Shown here in pieces: positions 4,990-39,646 of a stretch of DNA of 41,368 nt. The position numbers were made by a program, and so were the translations under genes. This DNA is from a virus. Its lineage: Duplodnaviria > Heunggongvirae > Uroviricota > Caudoviricetes. Position 1 is the first letter of the stretch. Every line of letters begins with the position of its first letter. The stretch is from IMG/VR virus record IMGVR_UViG_2671180984_000033, one strand, 5' to 3'. Below the pieces are notes generated by a model. The model was not told where the DNA came from. It did not search any database and saw nothing but the letters and a program-made list of their open reading frames with translations.

Positions 4990-7053
4990 TTAATCCTTAC
5001 GGTAGTGGTACGCCTCAAAACCGCCAGCGTTCAGTGGGATATCGGGCGCCCATTCGGGGTTAGTGGAGAGAAGTGCGGAAAGCGCTTTATCGTTGAAATC
5101 TTCTGTGTCAGGTGCTTCGGTGATCACCTCGTCGTGTACCGTCAGCACAATGCTGTAACCGGCATCTTCGATAAGCGGCATGTTTCCGGCCAGAATGTCG
5201 CGGGCGGCCGCCTGGGTGATGTTCTCCACCAGCTTTCCGCCGTAGGTTTTGAGTCGTTGCCATTTACGCGAATAAGAGTTAACCCCCATGTAGGTGATAT
5301 TCCCTTTTTCGATAACCGGAGACGGGTAGCATACAGCGCGTCCGGATGGTAGCTGTATGCGCAGCCACGCGCCATCGCGGCGGATTTTAAGATAACCGCA
5401 ATACAATGTTTTTTGCGGTGTGGCGATTGCAGTGCGGACGGTGCGCTCCAGTTCGTACCAGAAATCACAGGTCGCGGGATGCGCCCGGCGCCAGAGACGT
5501 TTAAGTGAGTCGCAGGCGATAAATACCCGTTCAGAAAGCCCGTAGGTTGACTTGCGTTTAACCGATTCGTCGTACCAGCTTTTCGCCTCGCGGATAACAT
5601 CGCGGGGAATGTTTGGTAGTGCGGCGTTCGCCAGCTCGTCGAGATCGAGACCGTAAACCAGTGCAAAAGTGATGAAGGCCGACACACCACCACCATAACC
5701 CAGACCGAGTTCCATGACTTTACCGATCTGACGCATGTGTTTATCAACATCATCTGGTGCAATATCGAAAGCTTTTGCATACGCCAGTTTATATAAGTCC
5801 GGACCCGTTCCGGCGTCGTACTCTCTGAATGCATTCAGTTTCCATTCTTCTCCTGCCAGCCATGCCAGCATACGGCCTTCAATGTTCGACAAGTCACTTA
5901 CCACCAGTTTTTTGCCTGTTGGCGCGATAATGCAGCCACGTAACGCTGAACTGGTTAGTTCCATGATATTGTCAAACAGCAGGTCTGCACATCCGGCTTT
6001 CAGTGCTTCGATGCCTTCGTCTATTTGTTCCTGTTTTAGTGAAGGGCGGGGAAGATTCTGGGGCTGGAATAGCCGTCCGGCCCAACGACCGGTACGTGAC
6101 GCCCCGCAGAACTGTAGCGTACCGCGTAAGCGCCCGTCGTGGCTTACGCCTTTCATCAGTGCCTTGTATTTACTGGTGCTGGTAGTACTGGCCTGCAGTC
6201 GGATAGCCAGCAGTTCTTTCACGGCAGATGGTAAATCGGGGTCGGCAATACGACGTTCCAGAGTACTGCGTTGCATGTCTGGTAGCTCCACACCGTAGGA
6301 TTCAACAATGTGCTTAATCAACGCGTCTCGTTGTGTGGCTGCCTGCACTTCGCCATCAGTCATTTCCTGTGTACGCTTTGCCAGGCGCTTTTGCTCCTGG
6401 TCTACCGCTTCGATCGCAGCGCGCGCGAGTTGCATGTCCATGCAGACGCCCCGGTCGTTGATCTGCTGATCACGATGCCAGAGCGCCAGCTCTGTCCCCT
6501 GATAATTCCACTTCGGCAGACGTTTATAGACTTCGCGCATTGCCTCGATATCCAGTCCGGCGTAAGCAACAAAGCGCCGCCATTCTTCCGGGTGGGTTTT
6601 GCTGGTGGCACGGCGCAGTTTGCTGTTTTTCGGGCGGGGCTTACAGAACAGCTGGATCAGCGCTTTACCTTCTTTGTCCTTCGCTTTGTCTTGCGGGACG
6701 CCGAGTATTTCGCAGAGTTCCCCCAGAGACCCCGGGAGACCGTGCGCCAGCGCCTGCACCATTGTGTCGCGCCAACGTTCGACTGGCGGTGCCAGGCGCG
6801 GCATTGCATAACGCAGGACGGTGCGGTCGAAGTGAGAGTTATGAAAATAAAGCAGGGTTTCAGGGTCTGCGATTGCTTCGTATAAGCCGTGTGGAATACC
6901 ACCACCGGCAGTGATATCCCACACGTTTACTGGCCCGTCGTTGATAGCCCATGCGAAAAGCATCACTTCAACGCCTTCGGCATACGCATGGGTACCGTTC
7001 GTAATAGGGATTTCGCAATAGGTTTCCAGGTCGCCCCATAGTATATTGGACAT
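4990..7053 (-). CDS. Family A DNA polymerase (phage polA-like)
   Basis: 687 aa; contains LTVHDEV (motif C-like) and an N-terminal exonuclease-like region. Confidence 0.8.
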
Positions 7054-27927: not shown

Positions 27928-29073
27928 ATGGCACAGGGCTTGCCTGTATCAAACGTTGTTAATGTTGATGTGATCATGTCGCCGCGTGCAGCATCAGGGC
28001 GAAATTTTGGTGCATTACTCATTCTCGGCCCGTCCACAATCATTCCGGTAAGTGAGCGCATTCGCCGTTATTCTGCCGCGGAAGATATTGGAAAAGATTT
28101 TGGCGTGGAATCACCAGAATATAAGGCTGCGCAGGTGTTTTTCTCACAATCACCGAAACCTCAGGAGGTTTTTGTTGGTCGTTGGGTGAAAACGAAGGGA
28201 GACAGCGAACAGGCCACGCCTGAGACGCTGGAGCAGGCTGTGAATGCCATGCTCGATTATACTTCATGGTATGGGCTGGGGATTGCAGACGATGCAGATA
28301 TTCCGGATGCAGACTGGCTGAAAGTGGCTGCGGCGATCGAATCCTCTTCTGTAAGCCGTATTCTGGCGATTACGACAAGCGATGAGAAATGCCTGCAGAC
28401 TGCATCCAGAGATGATTTGGCATCAAAACTGAAAACCGCCGGATATTCACGCAGTTTTATTCAATATTCATCGGGTAATAAATACGCTGCGTTATCTGCA
28501 TTTGGCCGGGCATTCACGGTTAATTTCAATGGCAGTAATACCGCGATTACGCTCAAGTTTAAGCAGGAGCCGGGTGTCGGGTATGAAACACTGACAGTCA
28601 GCCAGGCATCGGCACTTGATGCAAAAAACTGCAATGTATTTGTGTACTACCAGAATGATACGGCTATCCTCCAGCAGGGAGTGATGGCTAACGGCGATTT
28701 CTTTGATGAACGTCACGGCCTGGACTGGTTACAGAATTATGTGCAGACCAACCTCTATAACCTGCTTTATACCAGCACCACGAAAGTTCCCCAGACTGAA
28801 GCCGGTATTACCCGACTGTTATCAAATGTTGAAAAATCACTGGATCAGGCCGTTCAGAATGGACTGATTGCTCCGGGCGTATGGAACGGGGGCGACCTTG
28901 GTCAGCTGTCATCAGGTGACACACTGCCCAAAGGTTATTACGTATACGCCCAGCCGCTGGATGAACAGGCACAATCAGAACGTGAAGCCCGTAAGGCTCC
29001 GGTGATTCAGGCTGCAATAAAACTTGCAGGCGCGGTTCATTACGCTGACGTACAGATTAACGTTGTTCGCTAA
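27928..29073 (+). CDS. Tail sheath protein (DUF3383-like)
   Basis: 381 aa, followed by a tube-like gene and a chaperone-tape measure pair. Confidence 0.55.
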
Positions 29074-29083
29074 GGGGAAGTGA

Positions 29084-29524
29084 ATGTCTACCTATTCTTT
29101 TATGGATGTCACTGCGACGCTGACCGGGCCGACCGGTTCGATTGACCTCGGGTACAGTTCTGCAAGTTCTGAAGAGGGGATTGTGGTTGCGATGGGCGGT
29201 CCTAAAAACACCATGACCATCGGTGCTGATGGCGAAGTGATGCACAGTCTCCATGCAGATAAAAGCGGGACGATTACCGTTAACCTTCTGAAGACATCAC
29301 CGACAAATAAAAAATTGTCGCTGGCGTATAACGCACAGAGCCAGTCTTCTGCCACATGGGGGAATAACGTTATCGTGATCCGCAACAAGGTCAGCGGCGA
29401 CATCATCACGGCACGCAGTGTTGCGTTCCAGAAACAACCGGATAACGCCAACGCTAAAACCGGTAATACGATGCCGTGGGTGTTTGACTGCGGCAAGATT
29501 GACCAGGTTCTCGGGGAGTTTTAA
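29084..29524 (+). CDS. Tail tube protein (DUF3277-like)
   Basis: 146-aa ORF between sheath and chaperone. Confidence 0.55.
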   Translation: MSTYSFMDVTATLTGPTGSIDLGYSSASSEEGIVVAMGGPKNTMTIGADGEVMHSLHADKSGTITVNLLKTSPTNKKLSLAYNAQSQSSATWGNNVIVIRNKVSGDIITARSVAFQKQPDNANAKTGNTMPWVFDCGKIDQVLGEF

Positions 29525-29527
29525 TAC

Positions 29528-29980
29528 ATGGAATTCGAAATCAAAGGCGTGAAATATCGCGCGGCAAAACTCAACGTTTTTGACCAGCTGAAAGTGACCC
29601 GCAAACTTCTGCCGGTACTGGCGGGAATGATGTCAGATTTCGGGAGCATTCGCTCCCGTTTGCCTGCTGATGGCAAAATTGACACCGTGAAATTCGAACA
29701 GTTAAAACCGGTGTTTGAAACCATGCTCCCGCGTATCGCTGAGGAACTGTCTTCCCTGACCGAAGATGACACCGATGCGATTATTCATCCCTGTCTTGCG
29801 GTGGTATCGCGGCGTCATATGGACGGATGGGTGCCGGTATTTACCCAGGGCGAACTGATGTTTGATGATATTGACTTGCTGGTCATGCTGCAGCTGGTGG
29901 CGCGGGTGGTCGCCGATTCGCTGGGAAATTTTTTGCCTACACCCCTTACCAGCACGACGCAGAGCCTGCAACAGGGCTGA
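29528..29980 (+). CDS. Tail assembly chaperone
   Basis: 150-aa ORF directly upstream of the tape measure gene, with a slippery run near its 3' end. Confidence 0.6.
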   Translation: MEFEIKGVKYRAAKLNVFDQLKVTRKLLPVLAGMMSDFGSIRSRLPADGKIDTVKFEQLKPVFETMLPRIAEELSSLTEDDTDAIIHPCLAVVSRRHMDGWVPVFTQGELMFDDIDLLVMLQLVARVVADSLGNFLPTPLTSTTQSLQQG

Positions 29981-30177
29981 TGTTTAACAGCCTGCCGGAC
30001 GGGCTGTCCTACCTTCTCAATCCGGTTGACGCCGGGTTAATTCCTTATACATCACTTAAAGATGGCTCTGTCGATTTGTACGACATTGCTCTCTTGAATG
30101 ACCATCTGGCGGTAAAAGCGGATAACCAGCGGCGCATTGAGAAATGGAGAGAGGATAATGAACGCCGAGACTATTAA
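29528..30177 (+). CDS. Predicted -1 frameshift extension product of the tail assembly chaperone
   Basis: CTGGGAAATTTTTTGCC at about 29921-29937; the -1 frame stays open from there through ORF 29980..30177. Confidence 0.4.
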
Positions 30178-32164
30178 AGATTTCCTCGTCTCGCTTGGCT
30201 TCAGTGTGGATGATGCAGGAGCGAAAAAGTTCGGTTCTGTCCTCGCCGGTACAACTGCAAATGTCATCAAAATGGGGCTGGCCGTCGAAGGAGCTGCGCT
30301 GTCCGTGGTGGCTTTCACGGCTAAGATCGCCTCTGGTCTGGATAATCTTTACTGGGCGTCACAGCGCACCGGCGCGACAGTCCAGGGAATTCAGTCTATT
30401 GGCTATGCGGTTTCGCAGGTTGGCGGCAGCGTGGACGCTGCGCGATCTTCTCTGGAAAACCTCTCCCGGTTTATTCGTAACAATCCCGGAGCAGAAGGCT
30501 TTCTGAATCGCCTGGGCGTACAGACCCGTGATGCCAGCGGTAACATGCGTGACATGGCCGCTATCTTTACGGGCGTTGGACAGAAACTCAGCAGCATGCC
30601 GTATTACCGGGCTAACCAGTATGCGCAGATGCTGGGCATTGACGAAAATACCCTGATGGCTATGCGTCGCGGAGTGGGGCAGTTCAGCGCTCAGTATTCA
30701 GAAATGGTGAAAGCGATCGGATTTAATGCCGATCAGGCTGCCTTATCGTCAAACCGGTTTATGACCTCGCTGAAATCGCTCGGTGAAATGGCCGGGATGG
30801 CGCGGGACAAAATCGGATCGAATCTTGCGGACGGACTGGCGGGGCAGATTGATAACCTGCGCAAAAAGATAATTGAAAATTTTCCCAAAATTGAAGTCAC
30901 CATCACAAAGGTCATAAAGGGGATCCTCTGGCTGGGTGAGATAGTCGGGCGGGTTGCATTTCGGATAGTCGATGGTGTCGGAGATATCATCGAGTGGTGG
31001 GGGAAACTGGATGCCGAAACGAAAAACCTGATAGAGGTTATCGGCGGTCTGGTTGTCGCCATGCGGATACTTAACTCTACTTTCTGGATGTCACCTATAG
31101 GGCTGATTACCGGTCTGATCGTGGCTCTCGGTCTCTTGTGGGAAGACTACAAAACATGGAAAGAAGGCGGTAACAGTCTTATCGACTGGGAAAAATGGCA
31201 ACCGGCAATAGATAAAGCGAAGGATGCGATCACCTGGCTTCGTGATCACTTTCTGGAACTAAAAGATGGTGTTGGCGGCTGGCAAAATGCACTGGAAATC
31301 ATCGGTACATTCATCGCGGGTGTCTGGGTATCCAAGGTTCTGGGGGCTTTCGGAAAAATATCAGGTTTACCGGTCCCACCCTGGCTTAAATTGTGGGCGC
31401 TTTACGCGGGCTATATTGTTAGTGACAGAGAAAATATTGCTGATAGCGCAAAATCTTCACTGAGGTATACGAAGCGAATTATCGGCGACACGCTGGCTGC
31501 TATTGGTATAAAAACAGATATCGGACGCAGGGATGTCAGTGAGGTCCGTGAATGGCCTGCGTGGATGGACTGGTTGCACGGGGGACCCGGTAAAGTTATC
31601 CGGCAGGGACAGAGTAACGGTGTAGTGCATGGCTCCAATGTCCAGCCCGACATCCCCGGCGGCGGCACTCTTGCTGATCGCAACAATAACCCCGGGAACA
31701 TTCGCCCGGTGAGCGGTAAAGGGTTCCGTTTTTTCGAATCAGCGCTTGAGGGCTGGGAGGCGATGAAAAACCAGCTCATGCGTTACTTTACCGGGAAAAC
31801 AACCGGACGGGCATTACAGACTATTCAGGATATTGTCAGTACCTGGGCCCCGGCAGGTGATAACAACGATCCGAAAAAGTATGCACAGGATGTTGCGAAA
31901 TGGATGGGAGTATCACCGAATGCAATATTGAATCTTACAGATCCCCGGACTATGGGAGCATTGATGCAGTCGATGGCGCGCAAAGAAGGTTATTCAAACT
32001 GGAACAGCCCGCTGGCGTATAAGGTCGCCGCTGGCAGCCTTAACCAGCAGACTGTTATAAATGTTCATGGAGTTAACAACCCTCAGGAGGCGGCTAATCT
32101 GATCGCTGACAAGCAGGGGGCTGTAAATGCCAGGGCGGTACAGCAATTGAAAGGACCTGCGTAA
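30158..32164 (+). CDS. Tail tape measure protein
   Basis: Long helix-rich protein with hydrophobic central segments; track start 30137 is TTG, while ATG 30158 has a GAGAGGA Shine-Dalgarno. Confidence 0.75.
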   Translation: MNAETIKDFLVSLGFSVDDAGAKKFGSVLAGTTANVIKMGLAVEGAALSVVAFTAKIASGLDNLYWASQRTGATVQGIQSIGYAVSQVGGSVDAARSSLENLSRFIRNNPGAEGFLNRLGVQTRDASGNMRDMAAIFTGVGQKLSSMPYYRANQYAQMLGIDENTLMAMRRGVGQFSAQYSEMVKAIGFNADQAALSSNRFMTSLKSLGEMAGMARDKIGSNLADGLAGQIDNLRKKIIENFPKIEVTITKVIKGILWLGEIVGRVAFRIVDGVGDIIEWWGKLDAETKNLIEVIGGLVVAMRILNSTFWMSPIGLITGLIVALGLLWEDYKTWKEGGNSLIDWEKWQPAIDKAKDAITWLRDHFLELKDGVGGWQNALEIIGTFIAGVWVSKVLGAFGKISGLPVPPWLKLWALYAGYIVSDRENIADSAKSSLRYTKRIIGDTLAAIGIKTDIGRRDVSEVREWPAWMDWLHGGPGKVIRQGQSNGVVHGSNVQPDIPGGGTLADRNNNPGNIRPVSGKGFRFFESALEGWEAMKNQLMRYFTGKTTGRALQTIQDIVSTWAPAGDNNDPKKYAQDVAKWMGVSPNAILNLTDPRTMGALMQSMARKEGYSNWNSPLAYKVAAGSLNQQTVINVHGVNNPQEAANLIADKQGAVNARAVQQLKGPA

Positions 32165-36922: not shown

Positions 36923-38121
36923 TGGCTCTGAACCTTGATTCTCTCGGTTTATCTGCAAAGGTAACCGCGGAGGGGATCAGTGCGCCTGATTATCAGACGA
37001 TACTCAGCACCCTGATTAGCTATTTTCAGCAGATTTATGGCAGTGATGCCTACCTCGAACCGGATAGTAAAGACGGCCAGATGGTGGCTCTGATGGCGCT
37101 GGCGATTCATGATGCCAATAATACTGCGATAACTGTCTACAACTGTTTTTCACCGGCAACCGGCTATGGGGCCGCACTGACCAGTAACGTGAAAATAAAT
37201 GGTATTTCACGTAAAGGCGCGACGAATTCTACGGTTGATTTGCTTCTTACAGGAACTGCCGGAACAACCATCATTAATGGCAGCGTGAAAGACAGTAATA
37301 GTGTGATATGGCGTTTGCCTGCTTCAGTGGTGGTCGGCGTGGATGGTACAGTGATGGCGACCGCAACATGTTCCGTCAGTGGTGCAGTGGCGGCGCTGGC
37401 TGGAACTATCACTGAAATTAATACGCCAACCCGTGGCTGGGTTTCGGTAACTAATCCTGCTGCGGCTACTGTTGGCTCTCCGGCAGAAACTGATGCGGAG
37501 TTACGTATCCGCCAGTCGCAAAGTGTTGCGTTGCCATCAATAACCCCATTTGAAGCACTGGATGGTGCTGTTTCTAATGTTACCGGTGTAACCCGCCACA
37601 AACTCTATGAAAACGATACTGGTTCGGAGGACGGTAACGGGTTACCGCCACACTCTGTTGCTGTAGTTGTGGATGGCGGTGATGTGATGGATATTGCTCA
37701 GGCTATCAGAGGGAATAAAGGCCAGGGGACAGCCACTCACGGTACAACATCCGTTACGGTTCCGGATAAATACGGCAATCCCCATGTAATCAAATTCTCG
37801 CGTTCCAGTGATGTGCCTGTTTATGCCCGGATTAAATTAAAAGTTTTTACGGGTTATACCTCACAGATAGGGCAGCAGATCCAGCAGGCTATTTCCGACT
37901 ATATCAATAGTCTGATGATTGGTGATTCGGTCCTTTTAAGTCGCATTTACTCACCGGCGAATCTTGGCGTGGTGAGTGGCGGGAATGCACGCTATTACGA
38001 TATTCAGGAACTGACGATTGGGAAATCTCCGGGGGCTTTGTCGTCATCAAACATTGATATCAGATACAACGAATCTGCGTCCTGTACCCCGGAAAATATC
38101 GTTATAACGGTGGAGTCATGA
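36922..38121 (+). CDS. Baseplate J-like protein
   Basis: 399-aa ORF following the gpW-like gene. Confidence 0.6.
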   Translation: MALNLDSLGLSAKVTAEGISAPDYQTILSTLISYFQQIYGSDAYLEPDSKDGQMVALMALAIHDANNTAITVYNCFSPATGYGAALTSNVKINGISRKGATNSTVDLLLTGTAGTTIINGSVKDSNSVIWRLPASVVVGVDGTVMATATCSVSGAVAALAGTITEINTPTRGWVSVTNPAAATVGSPAETDAELRIRQSQSVALPSITPFEALDGAVSNVTGVTRHKLYENDTGSEDGNGLPPHSVAVVVDGGDVMDIAQAIRGNKGQGTATHGTTSVTVPDKYGNPHVIKFSRSSDVPVYARIKLKVFTGYTSQIGQQIQQAISDYINSLMIGDSVLLSRIYSPANLGVVSGGNARYYDIQELTIGKSPGALSSSNIDIRYNESASCTPENIVITVES

Positions 38122-38798
38122 GCAAATACACCGAACTAATCACGAACTACCACGCCACCAAACCTAAATTTCTTGCACATGTTGATCTGATGACCCGGCC
38201 GCTTATTGATGTTGCGGCGGCCACCAGAGGGCTGATTACTGCATTTGATATTGACTCTGCGGTTGGTGTGCAACTTGACATTCTGGGATTGTGGATCGGA
38301 CGTAGCCGTGTTGTCAGCCAGCCTATCTCAGGTGTTTATTTCAGCTGGGATACCGACGGGCTTGGATATGATCAGGGTGTATGGCAGGGACCATACGATC
38401 CTGATTCCGGATACATGTACCTCAGCGATGAAACTTATCGTGTCATCCTTAAAGCGAAGATTGCGATTAATAACTGGGACGGACGGAATGATTCGCTTCC
38501 GGCAATTCTTGACGCGGCAACAGCAGGATCCGGGCTGCGAATGCAGATAGTCGATAACCAGGACATGACGATATCGGTCTGGGTCTTTCCTGATACTGAT
38601 ATTTCAGATGTATCGCGTGAGTTAATTGCTGCAATTAAACAGGGATATCTCACAGTAAAAGCCGCTGGGGTGTGGGCGGGTGGCATTGAAACGCCTTCGG
38701 TGGAAACCCCATCGGAAGGTTCAAAATTTTTTGGTTTTGATATGGATAACGAATTTATCAGTGGTTTTGATGTAGGGGCATGGGGAGTATTACTCTGA
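38118..38798 (+). CDS. Tail protein (gpI-like)
   Basis: 226-aa ORF between the J-like gene and the tail fibre. Confidence 0.5.
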
Positions 38799-39646
38799 TG
38801 GCAAAAAATGACTTTAAAGCATTCGCAACGGGTAAAAATGCCAATGTTATGTCGCAGGAGGAATGGGAAGCGTTGCCTGCGCTTTTATCCGGATTTACAG
38901 CAGGGAAAGCCTCCAGTGCGCAAGTCAATAAGGTTATTCGGCAGGCCAGCTTTATTGCTGCAGCTCTGGCCCAGTTTGTAAGTGATAAAACGCAACGGGA
39001 TGTGCTTGATAATGGTGATCTGCCCGGTTTTGTTGAATTGCTGGGATCGGGGTTTGCTGTTGAATACCTGAGCCGCAAGAATCCGTTTGGCGATATCAAA
39101 TCGGATGGCACGGTGAAAATGGCTCTCGAAAACCTTGGTTTAGGAGAAGGCTCAGCATTGCCTGTTGGCGTACCTGTTCCGTGGCCCTCAGCCACTCCGC
39201 CAACAGGCTGGCTAAAATGCAACGGAGCAGCTTTTTCTGCTGAAGAATACCCGGAACTGGCAAAGGCTTACCCGACAAATAAATTGCCTGATTTACGTGG
39301 TGAGTTTATTCGTGGCTGGGATGACGGACGTGGTATGGATACGGGGAGGGCAATATTATCAGCTCAGGGCGATGCCATACGTAATATCTATGGTGAGTTC
39401 AGAACTGTAAACACTGAAAATTATTCAATATGGGAAACAGTAGGCTCGTTTAAGGGGGCCATAGTGCCATTGAGTCCCTCTACAAACAATAGTTATTTCT
39501 CCTTAACCAGAAGTATGGTGACAGAAAGAGCAGACGGCGCTGTTTACCCAAAAGTGATTGGCCTTGATGCTTCAAGAATTGTTCCAACTGCAAACGAAAA
39601 CCGTCCTCGTAACATTGCCTTTAATTATATCGTGAGGGCTGCCTGA
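38780..39646 (+). CDS. Tail fibre protein (constant N-terminal part plus currently expressed variable C-terminus)
   Basis: C-terminal [17 protein letters not shown] motif characteristic of Mu/P1/e14-type fibre tips; contains a crossover-site-like sequence at its LGLGE codons. Confidence 0.75.

Follow-up and report, generated by a model that had tools for sequence, protein, structure and literature searches.

The tail module in the stretch of viral DNA analysed here (IMG/VR record IMGVR_UViG_2671180984_000033; 41,368 nt, hereafter the window) carries a short open reading frame between a chaperone gene and the tape measure gene, and raises the question of whether this reading frame is a gene of its own or the C-terminal part of a longer chaperone, reached by a programmed -1 frameshift as a preliminary description had proposed. 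The comparative sequence data presented below argue that the locus very probably produces a short and a long tail chaperone by means of a -1 ribosomal slip at GGGAAATTTTTTG.

Gene order and candidate slip site

Open reading frames, together with Pfam, PHROG and RefSeq assignments, identify an E. coli prophage with a contractile tail, in which the genes follow the order sheath, tube, tail assembly chaperone (TAC), DUF6889 and tape measure. The same order was found in every annotated relative. The tail is assigned as contractile because a sheath gene is present, and a relative, SEN34, has myovirus morphology by electron microscopy (PMC5261728). The genes flanking the site are as follows.

27928..29073, + strand: tail sheath gene (DUF3383 / E217_gp31-type; Pfam PF11863, E = 4e-101; phrog_205 tail sheath, E = 2e-135)
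29084..29524, + strand: tail tube gene (DUF3277 / KPP10_Orf10 / Phage_Tube_PhiTE; Pfam PF11681, E = 2e-59; DUF3277 family protein in RefSeq)
29528..29980, + strand: tail assembly chaperone, short form (TAC-N), in the zero frame, stop TGA 29978-29980
30158..32164, + strand: tape measure protein gene (phrog_2276 tail length tape measure protein, E = 5e-248; RefSeq start 30158)

The 29528-29980 ORF, which has the tube gene directly 5' of it and the tape measure gene beyond, encodes a protein of 150 aa (computed mass 16.8 kDa) that matches Pfam Phage_TAC_15 (PF21822; E = 2e-31, 109.5 bits with a cut-off of 22, model positions 1-122 of 127) and phrog_1688 'tail assembly chaperone' (E = 3e-65), and is named 'phage tail assembly chaperone' in RefSeq. 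Judged by these matches, the ORF is a tail assembly chaperone, as had been supposed. The tape measure protein (668 aa) carries a lytic transglycosylase-like region at its C-terminus, and its ATG at 30158 overlaps the end of the 65-codon ORF in question by 20 nt, in agreement with the overlap noted previously.

[quoted passage not shown] The zero-frame codons at the site are CTG GGA AAT TTT TTG (L132, G133, N134, F135 and L136 of the 150-aa ORF), and three overlapping heptamers, all of them in X_XXY_YYZ register, are contained within it.

29923..29929, + strand: heptamer 1, G_GGA_AAT (lambda-like X_XXA_AAN), in register, kept in 64 of 77 unique loci
29926..29932, + strand: heptamer 2, A_AAT_TTT (R_RR.U_UU.Y class), in register
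29929..29935, + strand: heptamer 3, T_TTT_TTG, in register, with T_TTT_TTN kept in 76 of 77 unique loci

Upstream of the site, the last stop in the -1 frame lies at 29872, and the frame then stays open between 29875 and the TAA at 30175-30177, spanning the 65-codon ATG ORF (29980-30177) through which it had been said to run. A shift at the site would hence append 80 codons to the first 136, for a predicted long form (TAC-NC) of 216 aa and 24.4 kDa, joined as ...ADSLGNF(L/F)-AYTPYQHD..., where a slip on heptamer 1 or 2 would place F and one on T_TTT_TTG would place L.

29935..30177, + strand: -1-frame extension after the shift (80 codons plus TAA), from frame and translation
29936..29977, + strand: dual-coding overlap, in which the 14-codon zero-frame tail of TAC-N lies over the linker of the long form
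29980..29982, + strand: ATG of the apparent separate 65-codon gene, in a TGATG overlap with the TAC-N stop
30043..30159, + strand: DUF6889 domain (PF21829), residues 22-60 of the 65-aa ORF

The motif by itself is statistically unremarkable in the window. TTTTTTG was observed 14 times with 11.6 occurrences expected, and the 13-mer with at most one mismatch was observed once with 0.13 expected, at least one match being found in 13 of 100 shuffles. This lack of rarity would suit a reading of the run and its open -1 frame as a functionless coincidence or relic, with an extension that goes unexpressed. Long ORFs contain an in-register heptamer roughly every 244 codons, and only five such heptamers in the window have a -1 frame extending at least 30 codons beyond the zero-frame stop. 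Three of these five belong to this site. The other two, both minus-strand (TTTAAAG around 38817 and AAAGGGA around 5306), fall in non-genic shadow ORFs and were discarded. What exceeds chance is the combination of a heptamer with a long open -1 frame, to which conservation across the family adds.

Conservation of the slip site and the -1 frame

The comparison comprised 77 distinct loci from many genera of Enterobacterales, with chaperone identities of 46-100% (78 loci for the frame relation); viral_contigs copies, which are only 93-99% identical, were left out of the comparative statistics. The extension ORF lies in the -1 frame relative to TAC in all 78 related loci. The full 13-mer GGGAAATTTTTTG is kept in 58 of the 77, and the run consists of six T in the window and in 69 loci and of seven in another seven. 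The alignment with related chaperone pairs that had been suggested as a check thus identifies T_TTT_TTN, and not the lambda-like G_GGA_AAN, as the slip core across the family on sequence conservation.

The positions of -1-frame stops narrow the site further. In four loci (L117, L146, L147 and L151) such a stop lies immediately 5' of the T-run, so that only T_TTT_TTN is usable there, and in three more (L006, L009 and L010) it lies 3 nt before GGGAAAT; the stops in these seven loci therefore pin the shift to the motif. In L111 the T-run has been lost (T ATT TTG), leaving G_GGA_AAT as the sole remaining heptamer, and the extension is intact. [quoted passage not shown]

Conservation of the reading frames was then compared directly. 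Over the first 12 codons past the site, the -1 frame gives a mean pairwise identity of 0.59, against 0.36 for the zero frame and 0.33 for the +1 frame. By this comparison, protein-level conservation of the -1 frame sets in at the slip site, well 5' of any usable start. The extension is 77 codons long in 56 of the 77 loci, and the zero-frame tail 14 codons long in 61. In a synonymous-codon scan limited to pairs below 70% identity (background 0.44), synonymous identity at the site reaches 0.71 for CTG, 0.81 for GGA, 1.00 for AAT, 1.00 for TTT and 0.97 for TTG. Within the overlap, most codons between 137 and 147 have values of 0.76-0.99, the pattern that two-frame coding would produce. The 35 nt 5' of the site, invariant among close relatives, had been considered as a possible RNA element and were rejected, since they are at background in the same scan of pairs below 70% identity; their invariance is attributed to amino-acid conservation and relatedness.

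Register, position, extension length, protein conservation and synonymous-site suppression are thus all kept in loci of down to 46% identity, and these comparative data effectively refute the coincidence or relic reading, which is hardly credible at all. The same comparison argues for a programmed -1 frameshift as originally proposed, given the invariant -1 relation, the in-register and synonymous conservation of the slip run and the protein-level conservation of the -1 frame.

An arrangement of two genes could account for the open frame with no need of a fusion, if the 65-codon DUF6889 ORF were translated from ATG 29980 by termination-reinitiation at TGATG. This ATG overlaps the TAC stop in the manner classic for coupled genes, the last 65 codons could be translated independently to some extent, and both RefSeq/PGAP and most GenBank records present a separate 'DUF6889 family protein'. 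However, an ATG at the position equivalent to 29980 exists in only 6 of the 77 loci, upstream of 29980 no convincing Shine-Dalgarno (SD) sequence was seen on inspection, and the 15 -1-frame codons 5' of it are conserved as protein, including an R at 99% and a P at 97%. There is no ATG, GTG or TTG before the conserved LPDG motif in 56 of the 77 loci, nor before the DUF6889 domain in 30, and L147 has none at all. The lengths that gene callers assign to the extension ORF scatter between 46 and 78 aa. A purely two-gene arrangement is hence very improbable, and ATG 29980 is possibly a clade-specific, minor independent start.

Natural in-frame fusions were also sought as 'Rosetta stone' evidence, and this line was set aside because it yielded a single case. 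Among the best 120 homologues listed, one single-ORF TAC-extension fusion was found (protein P0001, locus L160, from one SRA assembly); it arises from a 1-nt T insertion giving T7, and its junction, SLGNFFAYTP, is as predicted. A search with the extension only returned 23 short ORFs, with no TAC fusions among them.

Probable nature of the shift

The comparative basis for the fusion product leads to a mechanism in which most ribosomes would translate 29528-29980 to its stop and yield the 150-aa TAC-N, and a minority would slip back by one nucleotide while decoding GGA AAT TTT TTG. The likeliest slip point would be T_TTT_TTG, with tRNA-Phe in the P-site and tRNA-Leu in the A-site, and A_AAT_TTT and G_GGA_AAT would provide extra opportunities to slip. 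Slipped ribosomes would then read 80 more codons in the -1 frame, up to the TAA at 30175-30177, and release the 216-aa TAC-NC, with a predicted layout of chaperone domain, flexible linker and DUF6889 domain. We infer both the ribosomal nature of the shift and the heptamer that dominates it. In E. coli, ribosomes are prone to shift at UUN A-site codons and at R_RR.U_UU.Y motifs, the latter being named as a notable efficient exception by Sharma et al. 2014, whose genome screen left out the three heptamers found here (PMC4066793). In the same study U_UUU_UUG, with its heterogeneous A-site codon, ranked below U_UUU_UUY in E. coli, and the efficiency of the shift may therefore be low.

Stimulatory elements were sought on both sides of the site. 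Folding of 20 diverse loci gave mean minimum free energy z-scores of -0.03 downstream and +0.06 upstream, with no structure signal, and an RNAalifold consensus of 51 sequences reached only -0.17 kcal/mol, with two pairs and no covariation. Sites of the dnaX and IS3 type have a conserved hairpin or pseudoknot 5-8 nt past the heptamer; no such hairpin was seen here. Upstream, where these cassettes carry an internal SD-like sequence 6-17 nt before the motif, a single candidate was identified in the window.

29904..29910, + strand: SD-like GGGUGGU (anti-SD duplex -6.5 kcal/mol), 12 nt 5' of G_GGA_AAT and 18 nt 5' of T_TTT_TTG

Anti-SD energies of -6 or below occur at this offset in 57% of loci, the window included, versus 3.6% of background positions. 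Synonymous conservation of the SD-like codons is near background, save for GTG127 at 0.74, and the element is not family-wide. GGGUGGU is hence a putative element that may act as a weak SD-like stimulator. A stronger sequence, GGAGGA (-9.3 kcal/mol), lies 12 nt 5' of T_TTT_TTG in the Erwinia-type clade only, in which G_GGA_AAT and A_AAT_TTT have both been lost.

The same 216-aa fusion (...SLGNFF-AYTP...) could also result from transcriptional slippage, with RNA polymerase adding an extra U on the T6 run at 29929-29934. Of all features, the T-run alone is retained in 76 of the 77 loci, it is T7 in seven of them, and the T7 variant at the DNA level, L160, encodes exactly the fusion. The conserved T6 run shared across the family is also what slippage would need, and conservation alone has no power to separate the two mechanisms; in addition, the Adele paper cites Vladimirov et al. 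2022, on the T4 TAC, in this connection. Against this, T6 is short: documented bacterial slippage runs comprise about 9 A or T (PMC5009743), and the run falls below the length of some 8-9 or more taken as a criterion for slippage. The synonymous constraint moreover reaches 5' of the T-run, to GGA and CTG, and the GGGAAA kept in 64 of the 77 loci would be useless to the polymerase, whereas L111, devoid of a T-run, retains G_GGA_AAT and an intact extension. Transcriptional slippage as the source of the fusion is thus quite improbable, and a ribosomal -1 shift is the explanation retained here.

A broader proposal appears rather unlikely. It holds that the site acts as a tunable 'tandem' signal, to which all three heptamers contribute and in which the upstream SD-like element compensates for lost heptamers, or else that T6 operates partly through RNA polymerase slippage, and that, on both versions, contractile tails of the KPP10/E217/Pam3 type would have in DUF6889 their first defined tube-recruiting 'T-domain' family.

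Known frameshifted chaperones and the DUF6889 domain

The lambda G and GT tail assembly chaperones were reportedly described by Levin, Hendrix and Casjens in 1993 and by Xu, Hendrix and Duda in 2004, 2013 and 2014. As in lambda, two overlapping ORFs lie here between the major tail (tube) and tape measure genes, there is no strong RNA stimulator, the long form extends the short one by a small C-terminal domain, and G_GGA_AAT resembles lambda's G_GGA_AAG. The lambda mechanism is widely conserved according to a review (PMC5009743), and three properties used to recognize G/GT-type pairs (Xu, Hendrix & Duda 2004) were found at this locus, namely the location of the ORFs, a conserved slippery site and, the clade-specific ATG 29980 of the window aside, an extension reachable only by a change of frame. 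The type is further defined by a fusion protein made at a low fixed ratio, with both forms needed for tail assembly and absent from virions, of which the lone one-ORF fusion among the best 120 homologues listed is at most an indirect hint. The differences are nonetheless substantial. Phage_TAC_15 and DUF6889 have no detected sequence similarity to gpG or gpT, lambda is siphoviral whereas the tail here is contractile, and the core is T_TTT_TTN, within a tandem of three heptamers, and not X_XXA_AAG. The likeness to lambda G/GT drawn in the preliminary description therefore stands for the overlapping ORFs between tube and tape measure, and the closer analogue is P2 E/E+E' or the KPP10-type TAC-N/TAC-NC, because the chaperone belongs to a contractile-tail (myovirus) module.

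P2 is likewise a contractile-tailed, temperate enterobacterial phage with a -1 extension in a chaperone pair lying between tube and tape measure genes, and its frameshift has been reported to be 2- to 3-fold more efficient than that of lambda (PMC5009743). It differs in protein family and in tail lineage, being P2-type where the sheath, tube and baseplate genes here are of the KPP10/E217/Pam3 type. A conserved poly-T -1 frameshift with an invariant GTTTTT was proposed in 2025 for the TACs of Vandenendeviridae (Pakpunavirus, KPP10-type) and Andersonviridae (PMC12846349). The likeness to these systems is one of module and motif, and includes the type of tail module, the KPP10_Orf10-type tube, the DUF3383-type sheath, a poly-T at the 3' end of TAC-N, a -1 frame uninterrupted in all relatives, a downstream ORF routinely mis-annotated as a hypothetical gene, and evidence that is purely comparative. 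The KPP10-type phages, in contrast, are virulent, on Pseudomonas, Acinetobacter and Citrobacter, and the motif here is longer. With E. coli dnaX and the IS911/IS3-type cassettes the site shares the X_XXY_YYZ heptamer logic and may share a weak upstream SD-like element; it differs in that no conserved downstream hairpin was found and in that the SD-like element is weak and 18 nt from the core.

A true homologue was identified in Klebsiella phage Mulock (MN098327), with a TAC 60% identical, an extension 66% identical and the same slip sequence in the same register and position. Its joined CDS CPT_Mulock_015 is annotated as 'tape measure chaperone frameshift product' in GenBank, an annotation that constitutes a prediction only, and neither the Mulock genome announcement nor the SEN34 paper mentions a frameshift. 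The E. coli prophage copies, including a 100% match in EH2252, are by contrast annotated as two genes. A copy of 98% identity is present in ETEC H10407.

The C-terminal ORF matches DUF6889 with 74.9 bits (cut-off 23.9; model positions 2-40 of 40) and phrog_4364 with E = 8e-24, and no mention of DUF6889 was found in the literature. AlphaFold2 was run on P0001, the natural fusion, using an alignment of 43 sequences (mean pLDDT 60.9). In the resulting model the folded N-terminal domain reaches to about residue 133 and so stops right at the slip site; a low-confidence linker and a C-terminal domain modelled at low confidence follow. A Foldseek search of this model against the PDB gave a best E of 2.6 with no chaperone among the matches, phmmer against PDB sequences returned nothing relevant, and neither lambda gpT nor any solved chaperone was matched in structure or sequence. 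By analogy, DUF6889 is likely the counterpart of the lambda T domain. If so, TAC-N and TAC-NC would coat the tape measure protein through the short-form domain, and neither would be kept in the virion, as for lambda gpG/gpGT; the rare C-terminal extension would bind and recruit tube protein (PMC5009743), upon which first the tube and then the sheath would polymerise around the tape measure.

Of the 5,426 complete E. coli genomes searched, 338 carry this prophage tail module, which also occurs in many other Enterobacterales. RefSeq treats the extension as a separate 'DUF6889 family protein', which older records mislabel as 'NTP pyrophosphohydrolase'. With the homologous frameshift already annotated in Mulock, what is new here is the location of the slip core and the identification of DUF6889 as the probable frameshift extension of the chaperone. 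The value is mainly one of annotation: the locus would be an ordinary new example of the lambda G/GT type, and the understanding of frameshifting and of tail assembly is unchanged. Members of the family differ naturally at the slip site, with the triple heptamer, the T-run by itself or G_GGA_AAT by itself, and with or without an SD-like element, and provide a clean series for studying U-rich tandem heptamers in E. coli in settings free of RNA structure. Recognition of DUF6889 as the frameshift-encoded C-terminal domain of the Phage_TAC_15 chaperone would give this domain a role and lead to corrected gene models.

Tail module and slip run

The 150-codon ORF that the preliminary description had taken for a tail assembly chaperone (TAC) gene was identified as such by Pfam and PHROGs. 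Together with a 65-codon ORF encoding a DUF6889 domain, it would form a chaperone with a -1-frame extension between the tail tube and tape measure genes, in line with the likeness to the lambda G/GT arrangement that had been proposed.

Features of the tail module and slip run
27928-29073, + strand: tail sheath (DUF3383, E = 4e-101)
29084-29524, + strand: tail tube (KPP10_Orf10/DUF3277, E = 2e-59)
29528-29980, + strand: tail assembly chaperone (Phage_TAC_15, E = 2e-31; phrog_1688, E = 3e-65)
29923-29929, + strand: heptamer 1, G_GGA_AAT, in the X_XXY_YYZ register of the 150-codon ORF
29926-29932, + strand: heptamer 2, A_AAT_TTT, in the X_XXY_YYZ register, overlapping both neighbours
29929-29935, + strand: heptamer 3, T_TTT_TTG, in the X_XXY_YYZ register of the 150-codon ORF
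29980-30177, + strand: 65-codon ORF, DUF6889 (E = 4e-21)
30158-32164, + strand: tape measure protein (phrog_2276, E = 5e-248)

Dit-like, Pam3_gp18-like and baseplate-hub genes were identified 3' of the tape measure gene. By the Pfam/PHROGs identities of its genes, the tail is contractile and of the KPP10/E217/Pam3 module type; the related phage SEN34, with a TAC 74% identical to that of the window, has myovirus morphology by electron microscopy (PMC5261728). The segment 29084-30400 is a 100% match to the E. coli EH2252 chromosome, and 338 of the 5,426 complete E. coli genomes searched carry similar prophages. In RefSeq the chaperone and the ORF after it, a 'DUF6889 family protein', are separate genes. 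NCBI records often call the latter ORF 'NTP pyrophosphohydrolase' (e.g. the matched proteins P0122, P0124, P0125, P0127 and P0129), which looks like a propagated mis-annotation of the chaperone extension. In the tape measure protein, the C-terminal third (phrog_873 at residues 488-667) has matches to endolysin and transglycosylase PHROGs, and the RefSeq name for the full-length product is 'lytic transglycosylase catalytic'; the gene is predicted to encode a tape measure that carries its own peptidoglycan hydrolase domain.

[quoted passage not shown] The -1 frame, which had been said to be open through the 65-codon ORF and to overlap the tape measure start, has its last stop at 29872 and is then open up to the TAA at 30175-30177; it contains the 65-codon ATG ORF, whose last 20 nt overlap the start of the next gene (ATG at 30158). 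The motif is not improbable on its own. The window has 14 copies of TTTTTTG versus 11.6 expected, and one match to the 13-mer with at most one mismatch versus 0.13 expected. Of the heptamers that lie in register in the window's long ORFs, only five are followed by a -1 frame that stays open for 30 codons or more past the zero-frame stop, and three of these constitute the slip run. The other two, T_TTA_AAG (~38817) and A_AAG_GGA (~5306), both on the minus strand, in register and with a long -1 frame, lie in shadow ORFs, the former antisense to the tail-fibre genes 38118-39646 and the latter inside the 687-aa gene 4990-7053 in another frame; both were rejected as frameshift candidates.

Conservation of the motif and of the -1 frame

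The comparison included 78 loci (77 unique), 12 from annotated phage and E. coli records and 66 from one-genome-per-species contigs, with TACs 46-100% identical to that of the window, in Escherichia, Salmonella, Klebsiella, Citrobacter, Enterobacter, Pantoea, Erwinia, Photorhabdus, Serratia, Arsenophonus and other genera. [quoted passage not shown] Of the 77 unique loci, 58 have the identical 13-mer and 76 have T_TTT_TTN, the sole exception, L111, reading T ATT TTG with G_GGA_AAT kept. Coincidence, which carries next to no probability, is excluded by the comparative data. L117, L146, L147 and L151 have a stop (TAG, TAA or TGA) as the -1-frame codon directly 5' of the T-run, and a -1-frame stop lies 3 nt 5' of GGGAAAT in L006, L009 and L010. 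Given these stops, the frame change must happen on the motif; in the first four phages it is possible only on T_TTT_TTN. The extension 3' of the heptamer is 77 codons long in 56/77 loci and the zero-frame tail 14 codons in 61/77.

A stop inside the extension, the observation that would have counted against the proposed site, was found among the 77 unique loci only in L146, all other -1-frame stops lying 5' of the T-run. This locus (Arsenophonus sp. MAG DAYVGO010000050; …RRRDS*PP…), the only one breaking the pattern, probably represents an endosymbiont prophage in decay. In Izhakiella australiensis (NZ_MRUL01000024, L138) the extension stop is absent and the -1 frame after the slip site spans 256 codons versus ~77, running on into the tape-measure region. 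Two records assigned to Flavobacteriales hosts carry an enterobacterial-type tail module: OM284015 ('Elizabethkingia phage EKP1', L010; DNA ~70% and TAC 50% identical to the window's, slip motif identical) and CACSKA010000001 ('Chryseobacterium sp. 18061', L103; TAC 69% identical, slip motif with one change, CGGAAATTTTTTG). Their host assignment or assembly purity looks doubtful.

In the 12 codons 3' of the heptamer, the -1 frame has a mean pairwise amino acid identity of 0.59 and the consensus A-R-T-P-R-Q-R-D (R 99%, P 97%), against identities of 0.36 for the zero frame and 0.33 for the +1 frame, which is not translated. Independent initiation at 29980, possible in the window's clade only, is very improbable: that ATG is found in only 6/77 loci, and no ATG, GTG or TTG precedes the conserved LPDG motif in 56/77 or the DUF6889 domain in 30/77, one locus having none at all. 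Independent initiation cannot be the general route. Database gene calls for the ORF range from 46 to 78 aa.

Synonymous constraint was assessed on a codon alignment of 74 full-length chaperone genes, using only pairs below 70% protein identity. The probability of the same codon at identical residues averages 0.44 over codons 1-110 and is 0.71, 0.81, 1.00, 1.00 and 0.97 on CTG GGA AAT TTT TTG. It is still high at most of codons 137 to 147, as expected where two frames are read. The ~35 nt 5' of the site, which look invariant in close relatives, do not rise above background in this analysis. The same protein would result from transcriptional slippage on T6, which is compatible with the conservation of the T-run; slippage is nevertheless improbable, since T6 is short against documented sites of ~9, the constraint reaches GGA and CTG too, and L111 has the arrangement without the T-run. 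The best explanation, and a very probable one, is a programmed -1 ribosomal frameshift of the G/GT type, yielding a short form (TAC-N) and a long form with the extension (TAC-NC).

Predicted products and candidate stimulators

The short form has 150 aa (16.8 kDa) and the predicted long form 216 aa (24.4 kDa; residues 1-136 plus 80 -1-frame codons), with a junction predicted as ...SLGNFF-AYTP... for a shift on heptamer 1 or 2 and ...SLGNFL-AYTP... for one on T_TTT_TTG. As a query, the fusion matches almost only ~150-aa chaperones and, among the best 120 matches, a single two-domain protein, P0001, from a single SRA assembly (L160 1890-1910, Logan SRR23924998 contig). There T7 replaces T6, giving a single 213-aa ORF with the junction SLGNFFAYTP; T7 could be a real long-form-only mutation or a homopolymer sequencing error. 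In the AlphaFold2 model of P0001 (mean pLDDT 60.9), a moderately confident N-domain extends to about residue 133, the position of the slip site; residues 134-164 form a linker of low confidence, and the C-terminal part is helical and weakly predicted. No structural neighbours of this model and no sequence match in the PDB were found. Another protein, P0077 (212 aa), is a chimeric ORF with a DUF977 (PF06163) N-terminal part in place of chaperone residues 1 to ~28, likely from a rearranged or mis-assembled prophage.

Folding of 60 nt downstream and upstream of the site in 20 diverse loci gave mean z of -0.03 and +0.06, and RNAalifold on 51 sequences gave -0.17 kcal/mol with zero covarying pairs. 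A Shine-Dalgarno (SD)-like GGGUGGU (29904-29910; -6.5 kcal/mol versus anti-SD; 57% of loci) lies 12 nt 5' of G_GGA_AAT and 18 nt 5' of T_TTT_TTG. Six Erwinia/Kalamiella-type loci (L120, L133, L150-L152, L155) have lost heptamers 1 and 2 and carry GUGGAGGA, with a strong SD-like GGAGGA (-9.3 kcal/mol) 13-20 nt 5' of the T-run. This GGAGGA ends 12 nt 5' of T_TTT_TTG and arises where a codon for Ala has become one for Glu; in that single clade it may compensate as a stimulator. Like lambda G/GT, the site seems to depend chiefly on re-pairing of the tRNAs. In E. coli the most shift-prone A-site codons are UUN and AAN, and R_RR.U_UU.Y, the class of A_AAU_UUU, is notably efficient (Sharma et al. 2014, PMC4066793).

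Relation to known chaperone frameshifts

The site would work like lambda G/GT and P2 E/E+E'. Its closest likeness is to the poly-T TAC-N/TAC-NC frameshift of KPP10-type and Andersonviridae myoviruses, a recent proposal argued from comparative data (PMC12846349). Klebsiella phage Mulock (MN098327) is a true homologue whose GenBank record already shows the frameshift, in the form of a joined CDS at the corresponding position that is named 'tape measure chaperone frameshift product'; the announcement of that genome says nothing about the product. By analogy with lambda (PMC5009743), both chaperone forms would bind the tape measure protein and the rare DUF6889 domain would recruit the tube protein. 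To these systems the analysis adds the absence of a conserved RNA structure (20 diverse loci folded, 51 sequences in RNAalifold), the location of the family-wide slip core as T_TTT_TTN inside a triple tandem, and the assignment of DUF6889 as the putative frameshift extension of Phage_TAC_15 chaperones.
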